A stretch of 64,000 nucleotides of DNA from Halorutilales archaeon Cl-col2-1 (GCA_041891055.1 CP169074.1:1472001-1536000); one strand, 5' to 3'. Shown: positions 35,394 through 40,207, numbered from the stretch's first letter. Numbers and translations are program-made. Notes: generated by a model from the sequence alone, not told the origin.

Positions 35394-36842
35394 ATGCCCG
35401 AGGAACTTCCTCCTAAGGACGATTTCAGCGACTGGTATAACGAGCTTCTGTTTGAGGCAGAGATAATGGACGTGAGGTATCCCGCGAAGGGGGTCTACGT
35501 CTGGTTCCCGTTCGGATACGAGCTCAGGAACCTCGTCTACGACCGCCTCAAGGAGCTTCACGACGACACGGGACACAGGGAGGCGAGCTTTCCCGTCCTC
35601 ATACCTGAGGGAATACTCGCGAAGGAGAGCGAACACATAGCCGGGTTCGAGGAGGAGGTGTTCTGGGTCACACAGGGCGGCGACAAGGAGCTTGACGAAC
35701 GTATGGCTCTCCGCCCGACGAGTGAGACTCCGATGTACACGATGTTCGACCTCTGGGTGCGTTCACACACCGACCTGCCTCTCAAGGTGTACCAGGTCGC
35801 CAATATCTGGAGGTCGGAGACCGAACACACACGTCCTCTGATACGTCTGAGGGAGATAACGAGCTTCAAGGAGGCACACACCGCACACGCAAACCCCGAG
35901 GAGGCGGCGGAACAGGTCGAGACCGCACTCGACATCTACGGCGACTTCTTCGACTTCTTAGGCGTTCCCCACGTCGTCTGTGAACGTCCCGACTGGGACA
36001 AGTTCCCGGGTGCCGAGTACACTTACGCCGTCGATACACTGATGCCCGACGGACGCGCGCTCCAGATAGGTACAGCGCACAACTTAGGACAGAACTTCTC
36101 GGAGCCCTTCGACGTCGACTTCGAGACGCCCGAGGGAGAACACGACTACGTCTACCAGACGTCGTACGGCGTGAGCGAGAGATGTATCGCGTCAGTGATG
36201 TCGGTACACGGCGACGACAACGGTCTCGTACTCCCGAGCGAGGTCGCTCCAACACAGGTTGCGATCGTCCCGATACTCTTCGGAGACGACGACGAGAACG
36301 AGGCTATACTCGAAAAATGCGAGGAAGTCGTCGAGGAGCTTGAGGAAGAGTACGGTCTCCGCGTAGAACTCGACGACTCCGACGATAGCCCCGGAGCGAA
36401 GTACTACAAGTGGGAGCTCAAGGGAACCCCCGTACGTATAGAGATAGGTCCACGTGACCTCGAAGAAGGGTCCGCGGTCGTCGTCAACCGTCTCGGAGAG
36501 GAGTCGGACGCCGACTTCGATCAGATAGGCGAGGAGATAGACGACGAGCTAGAGTACCTGTCGAGACAGATAGGACAGAAGGCACAGGGAGAACTCGAAA
36601 GCAGGACTGAGGCCTGTGAGACCTACGACGAGGCGAGGTCGGTGATAGGTGACGGCTTCGCCGAGGCGATGTGGTGTGGAGACGAGGACTGTGGGAAGGA
36701 GATGGAAGACGAGATAGGCGGCGACATGCTCGGCGAGGTTATCGAGGGAATCGACACTCAAGCCGAGGACGAGACCGACGGAAGCTGTCTCGGATGTGGA
36801 GACGAGGGAGAGAAGTCGGTGATATTCGCGAAGACGTACTGA
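35394..36842 (+). CDS. proS: Prolyl-tRNA synthetase (archaeal/eukaryotic type)
   Basis: FSDWY, LRPTSET, DLPLK.YQ, EAHTAH, KFPGA, LQIGTAHNLGQNFS. Confidence 0.96.
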   Translation: MPEELPPKDDFSDWYNELLFEAEIMDVRYPAKGVYVWFPFGYELRNLVYDRLKELHDDTGHREASFPVLIPEGILAKESEHIAGFEEEVFWVTQGGDKELDERMALRPTSETPMYTMFDLWVRSHTDLPLKVYQVANIWRSETEHTRPLIRLREITSFKEAHTAHANPEEAAEQVETALDIYGDFFDFLGVPHVVCERPDWDKFPGAEYTYAVDTLMPDGRALQIGTAHNLGQNFSEPFDVDFETPEGEHDYVYQTSYGVSERCIASVMSVHGDDNGLVLPSEVAPTQVAIVPILFGDDDENEAILEKCEEVVEELEEEYGLRVELDDSDDSPGAKYYKWELKGTPVRIEIGPRDLEEGSAVVVNRLGEESDADFDQIGEEIDDELEYLSRQIGQKAQGELESRTEACETYDEARSVIGDGFAEAMWCGDEDCGKEMEDEIGGDMLGEVIEGIDTQAEDETDGSCLGCGDEGEKSVIFAKTY

Positions 36843-36850
36843 GACTGAGA

Positions 36851-37282
36851 ATGAACGACGAGACTGAGACGGGAGACAAAGACGGAGAAGAGGCTCGAAG
36901 CCGGGACGGAGACGCAGACGAGGTCGACGGCAGAGGAGACTGTGAGGCGTGTTTCGAGGCGGGGATAAAGCTGGGTGCGCTCTACCACCAGTTCACGGGC
37001 ACGCCAATCTCGGGCGAGTCGGCGGAGTCACTCGAAACCGCGATAGAGGAAGCAGTCGGGAACCAGAGGTACGTCGAGGAGGTCGGCGTAGAGATAAGCG
37101 GCATAGAGCCCAACCGGTTCGGCTACTCCGAGCTAGAGGGGGAGATGGTCGACGTGAGTCTCGTGGTCGAGAAGGAGGGTGTAGTCGTCGAGGCGAGCAT
37201 GAGTGAGGAGGACGGCTACCCCATGATGAGGGTCGACGAGGTTCTCGAAGAAGACGAAGAGAGCTACGAGACCCAAGACTAA
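36851..37282 (+). CDS. mptD: Archaeal dihydroneopterin aldolase (DUF381)
   Basis: ACFEAGIKLGALYHQFTGTP, GYSEL, YPMM. Confidence 0.85.
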   Translation: MNDETETGDKDGEEARSRDGDADEVDGRGDCEACFEAGIKLGALYHQFTGTPISGESAESLETAIEEAVGNQRYVEEVGVEISGIEPNRFGYSELEGEMVDVSLVVEKEGVVVEASMSEEDGYPMMRVDEVLEEDEESYETQD

Positions 37283-37305
37283 GGCGGGCGGGACAGGTAG
37301 TAGTT

Positions 37306-37665
37306 GTGACTTCCTCCCCGCCCTCCACTCGCACTTAATGTGCGAGTTTAAGGATATTCGGAAATCTTCGATTTCCGAGCTTCCACAAATCTCCGATTTG
37401 TGTTATAGCCAATCGAAGATTGGCGTATCATCCAGATCAAAGATCTGGAGGCGGGGCTTCCAGAGCAGTTTGACCATGATGCCGTCTTCTTTGGATCTCA
37501 CCTCAGAGCGGTCTTCTCTGGAAGTCATCAAGCAGAGCTTGATGGCTCGCAAATCAAAGATTTGCGAAGCCTCTGGGAGGTTCCTGCTTCCGCCACGAAC
37601 TTATAAACCGTGAGGCCCACAGAGGTTCTGTGTTCACAGGCGTAAATTCCGCCGCGCCCCTGCGT
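37306..37665 (-). ncRNA. Putative TnpB omegaRNA/reRNA-like scaffold
   Basis: ACGCCTGTG...GAAGCAGGAA...GAAGCCCCGCC...GGCGGGGAGGAAGTCAC resembles the 3' region of tnpB elements; 5' boundary approximate. Confidence 0.55.
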
Positions 37666-37959
37666 ACTCGATGCTTAGAAATAGTACCGAGTGCGTGATA
37701 TAGCTTACGGCTGTCGCAAGATCTCTGATCTTGCTACCCACGAATTCAAAGAATTTGTGACTGTATCCCCTCCCTACTGTGTATGCAAATATTCGATTTG
37801 CTTGTGCTAGAAAACTCTACGAGTTTTCTGCATCACAGAAATCTCTGATTTCTGAAGACCCGTGAACCTAAGATTCACGAACGCTTCTTGTCTACTAAAG
37901 CAGACTGCGATGTGTTGAAAATCGGAGATTTTCATACGTATGCGAATCTCTGATTCGCA
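37327..37959. repeat. Cluster of about 15 short inverted repeats (17-21 bp), mostly stem-ATC-NNN-GAT-stem
   Basis: e.g. TCGGAAATC-TTC-GATTTCCGA (37358), CACAAATC-TCC-GATTTGTG (37384), GCCAATC-GAA-GATTGGC (37408), TCCAGATC-AAA-GATCTGGA (37431), CAGAAATC-TCT-GATTTCTG (37836), TGCGAATC-TCT-GATTCGCA (37941). Confidence 0.92.
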
Positions 37960-38023
37960 ACACTCCTTGAGGAAGGGGACTTAGCCTGTAAAAAGTTAAG
38001 TCGTGTCGGGTCTAAGCACCGGC

Positions 38024-38419
38024 ATGTCAGAGTCACAGACAAAGCTCGACGACGACGACCTGTTCACAGAGGCGTCCGACGAGATGAGGTCGGACATAAC
38101 CGAGGCGCTCGACGACGCGCGCGAGGCACTTCCCGAGACAGACAGTCTTCTCGAGATAGAGGGGGAGAACAACAACCTGATAGGCGTGCTCAACGGTCTC
38201 AAGTCGGATCTCGACGCCGAGAATGCGGCGGAGTCACTAGCCGAGGCGAAGAAATGGTTCGAGATGGGGAGAAGGGCGGACGCCTTCGACGGCGACTTCG
38301 TCGAGGAGACACAGGGGAGGATAGAAGACCTACACGAGGCGGTCGAGGCGGTCGAGACCGCGGAGGAGTCGGCGACTCAGCTTACCGACTCGGTCGCTAG
38401 TCTCAAACATCTCCTATAG
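38024..38419 (+). CDS. Conserved haloarchaeal protein (DUF5790-like)
   Basis: QTKLDDDDLF.EA..EMR.DI, AKKWF.MG.RADAF. Confidence 0.7.
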   Translation: MSESQTKLDDDDLFTEASDEMRSDITEALDDAREALPETDSLLEIEGENNNLIGVLNGLKSDLDAENAAESLAEAKKWFEMGRRADAFDGDFVEETQGRIEDLHEAVEAVETAEESATQLTDSVASLKHLL

Positions 38420-40207
38420 CTATAGATCCTCTATTCTGTCGAGATATCCCTCGTAGACGTCTATCGCGTCCTCTACGGGCTGGGGTGACGACATGTCTGC
38501 GCCCGCGGCTTCGAGGAGGTCGAGTGGATACTCGCTCGATCCCTTCGAGAGGAAATCTATGTATCTCTGTCTCGCCTCGTCGCCGTCTTCGAGTATCTGA
38601 TTGGCGAGTGATACGGCGGCACTCAGACCTGTCGAGTACTGGAAGACGTAGAAGGCGCGGTAGAAATGGGGTATTCTCATCCACTCTGTCCTTATACGGT
38701 CGTCGACGGCTGCGGGTTCGTAGAACTCGGTCTTGAGGTCGCCGTATATTTCGTCGAGTCTGTCGGGGGTGAGAGCACCGCCGTCCTCGACTATACCGTG
38801 GGTACGGTCTTCGAAGTCGGCGAACATCGTCTGTCTGAAGAGTGTGCCACGGAACTTCTCTATCATGTGGCTGAGGACGTGTCTTCTGAAGTCGTCGTCC
38901 TCGACTGTGTCGAGTAAGTGGTTGGTGAGTAGAACCTCGTTGACAGTGCTGGCGACCTCTGCGACGAAGATCGAGTAGCCCGAGTAGATGTAGGGCTGGC
39001 TCTCCTTCGTAAGCTCGGAGTGGAGAGAGTGTCCGAGTTCGTGGGCGAGTGTGTACATCGACGAGATGTCGTCCTGGTAGTTCATGAGTATGAAAGGCTG
39101 AGTGTCGTAGGTTCCGCCCGAGTAGGCACCCGACCTCTTCGCCTCGTTCTCGTATACGTCGACCCATCTCGACTCAAGACCCTCCTCTACCCTAGTCTGG
39201 TAGTCGTCTCCGAGGGGCTCGAAGGCATCGACGACGTGTTGGGTCGCGTCGTCGTAGGTGACCTCGGGCTCGGGGGTATCGGCGAGGGGCATGTAGACGT
39301 CCCACATCCGGAGGTCATCGACGTCTAAGAGGTCGCGTTTTATCTCGACGTGTCTGTGGAGAGGGTCGAGCCTGTCACGAACCGTCTCGACGAGGCTGTC
39401 GTAGACATCGACGGGTATCTTCGACGAGTCGAGCGAAGACTCCCTCGCTGTGTCGTAGTTATGTATCCTCGCGAGCTTTACGTCAGCCTTGACGCTTTTC
39501 TCGTAGGTCGTCCCGACTGTGTTCCGGAGTTCGCCGAGTGTGTCGTAGAACTTCTCATAGACATCGCGTCTGAACTCCCTGTCGGGGTTCTTCTGGAGCT
39601 TAGTGAAGTTGGAGAGTGTGATCTCGACCGGCTTGCCGTCGGGCTTCTCGACAGTCGGGAACTCGGTGTCGGCGTTTGTGAGTATACGGTAGACAGAAGA
39701 CGGCGCGCCTAAGACATCACTCAGGTCTGAGATGAGAGCCTCGACCTCGGCGGACCGGGTGTGGGGCTTCTTCCTCATCACGTCGTCGAGGTAGTGCTCG
39801 TAGACACCGAGTCCGTCGGTCTCGTCTACCATCTCGTCTATCTCGTCGCGGGTGTGGGACTGGATCGCGGGACGTATGAAGCTCGCCGCACTTCCGGCTT
39901 CGGACGAGACTGTCTCTGCGCGCGTCGTCATAGCCTGGTACTCCTGTCTCGTGGTATCCTCGTCACGTCTCATCCGGGCGTACGACGATAGCTTAGAGAC
40001 CTTCCTCATGACCTCTTCGCGTTTCTTCAGGATGGTGAGAAGATGTTCGCCGTCGTCGAACGAGTCGGTCTCCGCCTCGTCGAGTTCGTCGACCATCCCC
40101 TTGGTCTCCTCGAACTCCTCCTCCCAGTCTTCGTCTGTCGCGTAGATACTTTCGAGATCCCACCTGTACTCCTCGTCTATCTCCGAACGGTCAGGAACAG
40201 AGCTCAT
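38420..40207 (-). CDS. pepF: Oligoendopeptidase F (M3B)
   Basis: RWDLESIY, KRSGAYS, TLAHELGHSLH, FVAEVAST, WMRIPHFY. Confidence 0.94.
   Translation of the reverse strand: MSSVPDRSEIDEEYRWDLESIYATDEDWEEEFEETKGMVDELDEAETDSFDDGEHLLTILKKREEVMRKVSKLSSYARMRRDEDTTRQEYQAMTTRAETVSSEAGSAASFIRPAIQSHTRDEIDEMVDETDGLGVYEHYLDDVMRKKPHTRSAEVEALISDLSDVLGAPSSVYRILTNADTEFPTVEKPDGKPVEITLSNFTKLQKNPDREFRRDVYEKFYDTLGELRNTVGTTYEKSVKADVKLARIHNYDTARESSLDSSKIPVDVYDSLVETVRDRLDPLHRHVEIKRDLLDVDDLRMWDVYMPLADTPEPEVTYDDATQHVVDAFEPLGDDYQTRVEEGLESRWVDVYENEAKRSGAYSGGTYDTQPFILMNYQDDISSMYTLAHELGHSLHSELTKESQPYIYSGYSIFVAEVASTVNEVLLTNHLLDTVEDDDFRRHVLSHMIEKFRGTLFRQTMFADFEDRTHGIVEDGGALTPDRLDEIYGDLKTEFYEPAAVDDRIRTEWMRIPHFYRAFYVFQYSTGLSAAVSLANQILEDGDEARQRYIDFLSKGSSEYPLDLLEAAGADMSSPQPVEDAIDVYEGYLDRIEDL

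Follow-up and report, generated by a model that had tools for sequence, protein, structure and literature searches.

The window analysed here, a 64,000-nucleotide stretch of Halorutilales archaeon Cl-col2-1 (C1:1472001-1536000 of a 2.06-Mb genome in four contigs, 99.5% complete), holds at positions 37306-37994 on the minus strand a 689-bp element that is very likely a transposase-free derivative of the IS200/IS605-family insertion sequences of the IS1341 (TnpB) type. As such, it would belong with the palindrome-associated transposable elements (PATEs), the protein-free elements of Haloquadratum walsbyi and Natronomonas described by Dyall-Smith et al. 2011 (PMC3119063). It takes up nearly all of the spacer between a dihydroneopterin aldolase gene and a gene for a DUF5790 protein. 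A sequence-only reading had proposed a protein-free IS200/IS605 element at this place, and the strings that it quoted and both of its boundaries (37306 and 37994, minus strand) were all found exactly where it put them. The proposal itself is borne out by the absence of any TnpB remnant, the best blastx match against the 29 TnpB proteins of the genome having an E-value of 0.044, and by the homology of both ends to the ends of TnpB elements. Open reading frames (ORFs) inside the element do not exceed 91 amino acids and are built of hairpin repeats.

We extracted 29 tnpB ORFs from the genome, omitting the short fragments at C1:1198729, 1930421 and 517954, and inspected their flanks over 250 nt on the upstream and 300 nt on the downstream side. 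The TnpB zinc-ribbon (PF07282) gave 46 listed matches in the genome, 32 of which score above the Pfam cut-off. Window positions 37700-37883 align with C1:1826878-1827061 at 90% identity over 184 nt (E 1e-65), within the left end of the TnpB element C1:1825424-1827281, and the homology to this parent type stops at about 37700. The same left-end type precedes the tnpB genes C1:1826665-1825424 and C1:1345030-1343759; its internal segment is 97% identical to C1:13666-13729, and its terminal 37-50 nt are 82-90% identical to four further left ends. The right-end type, GAAG-CCCCGCC-(GTTCAC)-GGCGGGG-AGGATG-TCAC with a loop of 6 nt in the TnpB elements, follows the tnpB genes C1:430355, 916394, 633192, 1614018 and 935815; against the copy in the C1:430355 element, the right-end strings of the window match in 11/11 and 16/17 bases. 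The genome has exactly one gene for the Y1 transposase (TnpA; C1:979011-979418), an intact ORF of 135 amino acids with the HVH motif and a C-terminal RYIEE, which is divergent to a tnpB as in IS605.

The architecture of the element likewise follows that of the family, with an added load in its loops (Table 1). Neither of its termini, TTTTTACAGG... and ...GGAAGTCAC, is an inverted copy of the other, and palindromes lie near both ends. The two arms of each foot are far apart, by 194 nt at the left end (TCCCCTTCCT / AGGGAGGGGA) and 127 nt at the right end (CCCCGCC / GGCGGGG). Single-stranded DNA folding nevertheless closes both ends through feet of 7-11 bp around inner small hairpins, with stabilities (z = -6.7 at the left end and -8.0 at the right) that none of 200 shuffles reached for either end. 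The sequence-only reading had envisaged a simple element with two small subterminal hairpins; this did not survive, as its loops are filled, over 187 and 127 nt, with a distinct class of repeats, here called mini hairpins, which make up about 45% of the element. Apart from one mini hairpin (37547-37567), nothing in the core (37461-37699) recurs in other parts of the genome, and the core has no protein homology. Of the layout of an omega RNA locus, only the terminal right-end hairpin and tail are left in the element. An Rfam scan of 36800-38500 gave four matches, none at the gathering score (best 18.2 bits, with 38 required). A TATA-like TTTATAA (minus strand, 37607-37601) was considered as the promoter of a leftover guide RNA and dropped because it is not conserved in G001, the only congener.

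Both ends also carry guide and cleavage motifs of the kind known from the family. In IS608, the guide AAAG pairs with the cleavage motif TTAC, and GAAT with TCAA. For the IS200/IS605 family, a published account has a DNA guide in each end pair with the motif at the target (TAM) and with that at the transposon end (TEM), guide and motif co-varying (PMC10055086). In the window element the corresponding pairs are TAAG/TAAC at the left end and GAAG/TCAC at the right end. Among the window-type right ends of the genome, guide and cleavage motif co-vary in 10/10 cases, with GAAG-TCAC in five (the window included), GAAA-TCAT in one and GATT-TCAA in four, of which two are almost the same; the last position co-varies among three states. 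The corresponding left-end set comprises 14 copies, namely 11 of 16 tabulated rows together with C1:1345277, C1:1656170 and C2:61960; the five rows left out are three that lack end features, one that is a right end and one whose guide, GGGG, is ambiguous. Here, the seven copies with the guide TAAG have TTAAC (five copies, and the target proposed by the sequence-only reading), TTAGC (one) or TTCAC (one), and the seven with GGAG have TCAAC (four) or TCAGC (three). In this five-letter reading, one position pairs A with T and G with C in 13/14 copies. A guide rule for the '...GGGGTAGTTNAC' right-end family fitted one copy and failed another, the hairpin foot being ambiguous, and was not used.

The two ends of the element do not belong to the same family. 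Among other elements with the left-end type of the window, all nine with a readable right end finish in ...AGTAGG(G/T)NGGGGTAGTTNAC, i.e., in the '...GGGGTAGTTNAC' family, and each of the three readable elements with its right-end type carries another left end, GAATCCCGCCC.../GGGAGTGAATC; the two types are combined in the window element alone. Because each type keeps other partners elsewhere, the element reads, on its sequence, as a chimera of two end families. The foot and tail of the two ends are still similar (AGGGAGGGGA-TACAG-TCAC vs GGGCGGGGA-GGAAG-TCAC), which makes it conceivable that one TnpA could serve both. The search for further copies and parents suggested by the sequence-only reading recovered TnpB elements that share one end or the other and no full-length copy, with the left and right ends leading to different families.

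Several observations on the code, the make-up and the mobility of the element weigh against its interpretation as a transposase-free IS200/IS605 derivative. As to the code, the TAAG copy at C1:1827262 is the one with TTCAC. Moreover, in a four-letter register the rule TAAG to TANC fits 6/7 copies and the rule GGAG to TCNC fits 0/7, the last four letters there being CAAC or CAGC, so that the five-letter reading alone fits the latter and the left-end guide rule has an ambiguous register. The boundaries of the other elements were set by eye, where copies stop resembling each other, and the co-variation counts overstate the independent support because several copies are related by descent. With these two cautions, we take the code to be real in this genome, with both window ends obeying it and TTAAC as the usual target of the TAAG subfamily; the code put forward by the sequence-only reading accordingly stands for the right ends and, in five letters, for the left ends, and fails in its four-letter form for the GGAG copies. 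As to the make-up, the tnpA-bearing element has a right-end hairpin GCCTCGGGC/GCCCGAGG and the terminus ...TTAC, unlike both ends of the window element, and the sequence upstream of the right end shows no similarity to the tnpB 3' region or guide-RNA scaffold that TnpB elements have there.

As to mobility, no second copy sharing both ends is present in the genome. G001 carries the element at identical junctions, with about 94% identity, much as in the flanking genes; no polymorphic empty site was seen there and there is no evidence of recent mobility. The empty site predicted by the sequence-only reading was therefore not seen, and the identical junctions of the congener are half of what that reading had named as speaking against itself. 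The mobility typical of PATEs, in the form of strain-specific insertion or several copies, is also not in evidence, the element being a single copy that is fixed in the congener. Contigs of the metagenome runs X1 and X2 carry the G001-type allele (joint 37355 to 37453), and the contigs of four metagenome runs hold no joint at 37305/37995, though contigs cannot show absence; joints at 37237->38044 and 37239->38045 (805-806 nt skipped) were set aside as unreliable, with sides of 21-22 letters that lie inside the flanking genes. In genomes of other families, the flanking genes are neighbours separated by 39-333 nt, and the element is missing from all eight examined, which at 42-71% protein identity are too distant for a base-precise empty site. 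Given the same junctions in G001 and the absence from 8/8 genomes of other families, the element is a lineage-specific insertion that is older than the split of the two known species and has left no evidence of movement since. That it is a fixed relic is more probable than that it is still active.

These same observations give some room to the idea that the 689 bp are an accident of decay, in which a solo left end and a solo right end, two unrelated dead fragments that never moved together, came to lie side by side. The origin of the ends in different families that elsewhere keep their own partners (9/9 and 3/3), the lack of a second copy with both ends and the fixed position in the congener are all compatible with it, and solo ends do occur elsewhere in the genome, e.g., the tnpA-side end at C1:979420-979630, C1:533440-533640 and C2:51520-51720. 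We nonetheless consider it unlikely, as the two ends lie in the same orientation and in the correct order (left then right on the minus strand), the outer junctions are clean, with the usual TTAAC of the family at the left one, and the two ends have feet and tails that are alike, as expected if one TnpA serves both. An entirely different explanation would make the region a REP/BIME-like cluster, or a structured non-coding RNA gene that acts on the neighbouring genes (in termination, RNA stability or as a promoter), with the resemblance to transposon ends being incidental. Similar arrays are indeed found isolated in intergenic DNA, after stop codons and beside tRNA genes, and the predicted folding is strong; yet the homology of the ends is extensive and specific (E 1e-65), the region is absent from 8/8 of the more distant relatives, no Rfam family reaches its gathering score, and the array content differs between the congeners, which argues against a constrained RNA. 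This explanation is therefore very improbable.

Under the favoured interpretation of a transposase-free IS200/IS605 derivative, the element would have reached the spacer, on the 3' side of TTAAC, through "peel and paste" transposition of a single strand, with the insertion presumably catalysed by a Y1 TnpA supplied in trans. In the simplest history, the two end families would have been fused, probably by a deletion between co-oriented elements that were nested or adjacent, and the element would already have been resident at the site when the two known species of the genus split. In the course of these events or later, units of about 24 nt colonised the single-stranded loops of both end hairpins; these belong to a dispersed class of repeats that keeps expanding, contracting and flipping.

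Table 1. Parts of the element, ordered from its target to the terminus of its right end (window positions)
Feature	Positions	Strand	Remarks
Target/TAM TTAAC	37995..37999	-	immediately 5' to the left end
Left-end terminal 11 nt TTTTTACAGGC	37984..37994	-	likeness to other left ends begins here; G001 junction identical
Left-end DNA guide TAAG	37980..37983	-	at the hairpin foot
Left-end foot, 5' half: TCCCCTTCCT (37970-37979) + CAAGGAG	37963..37979	-	sequence, single-stranded DNA fold
Left-end loop, 187 nt, mini-hairpin array	37776..37962	.	loops of other copies of the left end: 14-28 nt
Left-end foot, 3' half: AGGGAGGGGA	37766..37775	-	sequence, single-stranded DNA fold
Left-end internal segment TACAGTCACAAATTC ... 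GCAAGATC hairpin ... GCCGTAAGCTAT	37700..37765	-	common to TnpB-carrying elements
Core, 239 nt	37461..37699	-	about 94% kept in G001
Right-end DNA guide GAAG	37457..37460	-	sequence
Right-end foot, 5' half: CCCCGCC	37450..37456	-	sequence, single-stranded DNA fold
Right-end loop, 127 nt: four ATC-N3-GAT mini hairpins + one other hairpin	37323..37449	.	
97-nt block: four mini hairpins + 3 nt of the right-end foot	37356..37452	.	missing in G001 and in the X1/X2 contigs
Right-end foot, 3' half: GGCGGGG	37316..37322	-	sequence, single-stranded DNA fold
Right-end tail AGGAAG (37310-37315) + cleavage motif TCAC (37306-37309)	37306..37315	-	element end; G001 junction identical

The loops of the two ends hold nine perfect hairpins of the form N4-6-ATC-N3-GAT-N4-6, in addition to degenerate and other small hairpins. 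All 7 matches of AATCNNNGATT in the window lie inside the element, as against 0.47 expected, and 0/100 shuffles reach this number. Genome-wide, perfect ATC-N3-GAT hairpins whose stem is 6 bp or longer number 200 and form 86 clusters; perfect hairpins with a 3-nt loop and a stem of at least 8 bp number 240 in C1 as opposed to 22 in its shuffled copy. When oriented by the polarity of the loop, the unit is about 24 nt long, contains a 21-nt perfect hairpin and has the consensus aCGT-TCGNAAATC-TYY-GATTTNCGA-GCC, the consensus of the hairpin alone being TCGNAAATC-N3-GATTTNCGA. The CGT tag is found in 130-134 and the GCC tail in 85-107 of the 200, and the centre-to-centre distance is 23-25 nt in 132 adjacent pairs. 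About a dozen stem variants recur at many loci (TCGTGAATC 13 times and TCGGAAATC 12 times). These recurrent variants, seen at many loci and in several families, point to spread by the copying of pre-formed units and not to the local birth of palindromes.

The mini hairpins are enriched at transposon ends: 103/200 have a tnpB ORF or an end-foot motif no more than 300 nt away, compared with 7.8% of random positions. They occur in the loops or stems of the left and right ends of many TnpB elements, including those of the intact-tnpB elements C2:107775 and C1:916394, and the single tnpA has six of them on one side, in the adjoining left-end loop. The remainder are isolated in intergenic DNA, after stop codons, with some abutting tRNA genes. 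For instance, arrays start directly after a tRNA-Glu (L181:1322-1396 = C1:372121-372195) and finish directly before a tRNA-Gly (L184:1662-1733 = C1:939061-939132), in both cases with no recognisable transposon end nearby. Since copies of the left-end type of the window also occur with unswollen loops of 14-28 nt, both in the genome and in metagenome contigs, the arrays in the loops of the element are secondary.

Comparison with G001 shows that the mini-hairpin family turns over faster than the surrounding sequence. The 97-nt block of four hairpins in the right-end loop is present only in the genome of Cl-col2-1 (G000), and this difference is probably a deletion in G001, as 3 nt of the right-end foot are gone from it too. 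Conversely, the left-end loop of G001 has a block of 155 nt with six hairpins after 37879, with AACG on both sides, and lacks 12 nt (37939-37950). At 37556-37558, the loop of TCGCAAATC-AAA-GATTTGCGA reads TTT in G001 and the X1 contigs with identical stems, an in-place flip of the 3-nt loop. Elsewhere, the whole array C1:259774-259959 is missing from G001, and the array C1:246235 differs between the two genomes by 49 nt, being shorter by recombination between two AATCTC cores; recombination between conserved cores thus explains the contractions of arrays. A module of about 49 nt with two hairpins may be the inserted unit, as the indels are 49, 49, 50, 97, 97 and 155 nt, but the dominant spacing is 23-25 nt.

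With respect to phyletic spread, the mini-hairpin pattern was found in 27/201 sampled genomes of the order and its reversed control in none; the two genomes of the genus have 43 and 36 occurrences of TCGNNAATCNNNGATTNNCGA, and the 25 others have 1-10 each. Among the matches listed from wider genome contigs, there are scattered single bacterial ones, as chance predicts. With the TnpA of the genome as the query, no TnpA match was obtained in five hairpin-bearing genomes (G010, G020, G026, G027 and G035, 78-91% complete). G001 lacks an ortholog of this TnpA (best 50% identity), and the closest relative of the enzyme, at 86%, has an internal stop and is from a genome of another family. A domesticated RAYT-like TnpA serving the mini hairpins is therefore not supported, the enzyme being moreover paired with a tnpB as in IS605.

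Among the known systems, PATEs offer the closest parallel to the element as a whole. Like them, it has no transposase coding capacity, lacks terminal inverted repeats, has palindromes near both ends, shows termini related to the IS605-type transposons of the same genome and has a 5' targeting sequence, which in PATEs is 4-5 bp long (PMC3119063). The same paper also describes "heterogeneous" single copies and conglomerates of mobile elements. It differs from PATEs in having its palindromes split by hairpin arrays of 127-187 nt and its ends drawn from two end families, the published HqIRS families having been compared by description only. From IS200/IS605 elements such as IS608 and the ISGst elements, it differs in lacking both tnpA and tnpB, while sharing the subterminal hairpins and the four-letter foot guide that co-varies with TAM and TEM (PMC10055086). 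Its TEM, (G)TCAC, resembles the TTCAC of ISGst2, and the occurrence of one TnpA with many tnpA-less elements in a genome is also as described for ISGst (PMC10055086). The register of the IS608 rule fits the window-type right end and the TAAG-type left end, not the GGAG-type left end. Similar gene-less elements were noted in Geobacillus by Meers et al. (PMC10055086).

Further observations concern other elements of this genome, which has about 30 tnpB genes versus one tnpA in its 2.06 Mb. A clean protein-free PATE of about 410 bp lies at C1:526946-526535, with relatives at C1:1655650-1656200 and C2:61960-62480; this family has a GGAG/TCAAC left end and a ...GGGGTAGTTGAC right end, and its members look like cleaner, multi-copy PATEs than the window element. 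The end beside the single tnpA exists in the three near-identical copies listed above, each with a CCCCCGCCC/GGGCGGGG foot around the same six small hairpins, and one of the three adjoins genes. Just upstream of several tnpB genes are ORFs of 44-59 amino acids (L039:2591-2770, minus strand; L026:2575-2751; L187:1883-2026), one of which reaches 21.2 bits, with a cut-off of 21.5, for DUF2080, "putative transposon-encoded protein"; the others appear ribbon-helix-helix-like by eye and have no Pfam match.

For the mini hairpins, two kinds of known repeats come into consideration. The SMR-A elements of Haloquadratum, which their authors proposed to work against PATEs as well as transposons of the IS605 type, are likewise transposase-free, have strong internal symmetry and cause no target duplication, and they prefer the near-terminal palindromes of PATEs and IS605-type transposons (PMC3119063). 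They are, however, about 110 bp long with terminal inverted repeats and highly homogeneous (PMC3119063), unlike the mini hairpins with their units of about 24 nt in head-to-tail arrays, about a dozen stem variants and presence also outside transposon ends. The bacterial REP/BIME repeats are similar in being dispersed extragenic hairpins of about 20-40 nt with stems of 8-9 bp that form clusters and stem-variant families, with some units inside larger palindromes (PMC3733652, PMC2817692). They also share an unpaired tag and a short tail, CGTC/CCA in REPs against CGT/GCC in the mini hairpins (PMC3733652). With REPs, the mini hairpins share a high copy number, clustering, an extragenic location and a conserved unpaired tag. 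They are unlike REPs in their 3-base loops (4-5 in REPs), the absence of A-T pairs at the stem base and their archaeal host (PMC3733652). The CGTC-tagged REP super-family, in the description given of it there, has no dedicated transposase and is reported solely from five bacterial phyla (PMC3733652); for archaea, the ordinary IS200-type TnpA of subclass 1.1 is the only one reported (PMC6006769). We found no description of hairpin arrays of such kind in archaea in open-access papers and preprints. Tentatively, and with low confidence, the mini hairpins could be seen as an archaeal counterpart of REP/BIME, i.e., as self-propagating minimal single-strand elements that home to folded single-stranded DNA, mainly to the end loops of IS200/IS605 elements and also to gene ends and tRNA flanks, and that build head-to-tail arrays there. 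On such a reading, the ordinary IS200-type TnpA may move them, or else an enzyme not yet known.

At the locus itself, the flanking genes are as the sequence-only reading had named them, both on the plus strand: the dihydroneopterin aldolase (PF04038, E 2e-32) has its stop at 37282, and the DUF5790 protein (E 2e-37) starts at 38003 or 38024. The G+C content of the genes is about 0.60, and that of the spacer drops to 0.42-0.53. The proteins are acidic, and metagenome runs with 12-36% of the sampled words of the stretch are labelled as salt-lake or hypersaline-lake; we take the organism to be a haloarchaeon from a genus with small genomes. Among the public runs listed with parts of the stretch, none is an RNA run. 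The flanks read ...GACTTAAC / element / AACTACTACC, with only AAC repeated on both sides, which is within chance, there being no precise empty site for comparison. On the plus strand, TGTAAAAAGTTAAGT (37985-38024) comprises the A-rich tip of the left end and TTAAC, about 30 nt 5' of the ATG of the DUF5790 gene, and two relatives (G011 and G027) have TTTAAGT at an equal distance from this ATG. Because of this position of the tip and the TTTAAGT of the relatives, the insertion may have landed in, and rebuilt, a TATA-like box of the DUF5790 gene. At 37249, G001 and two metagenome runs have an in-frame addition of 12 bases, GAAGACGAAGAG, where the aldolase gene encodes its acidic C-terminal tail; this is a difference in repeat number.

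Taken alone, the element is a usual representative of a class already described and adds another case of the decay of IS200/IS605 elements to gene-less shells in haloarchaea, while the genome provides a clear data set of guide and cleavage motifs that co-vary. The mini hairpins are concentrated in the very hairpins that TnpA and, at the right ends, also the TnpB guide RNA must recognise. If the REP/BIME-like reading of them is true, they swell the loops needed by TnpA and the TnpB guide RNA and would thus be parasites of, or brakes on, the transposons, in the manner of a miniature SMR-A. If mobile, they would be smaller than any hairpin repeats reported for archaea in the literature searched, and would amount to a natural experiment on how far transposon ends or guide-RNA stem-loops tolerate insertions.

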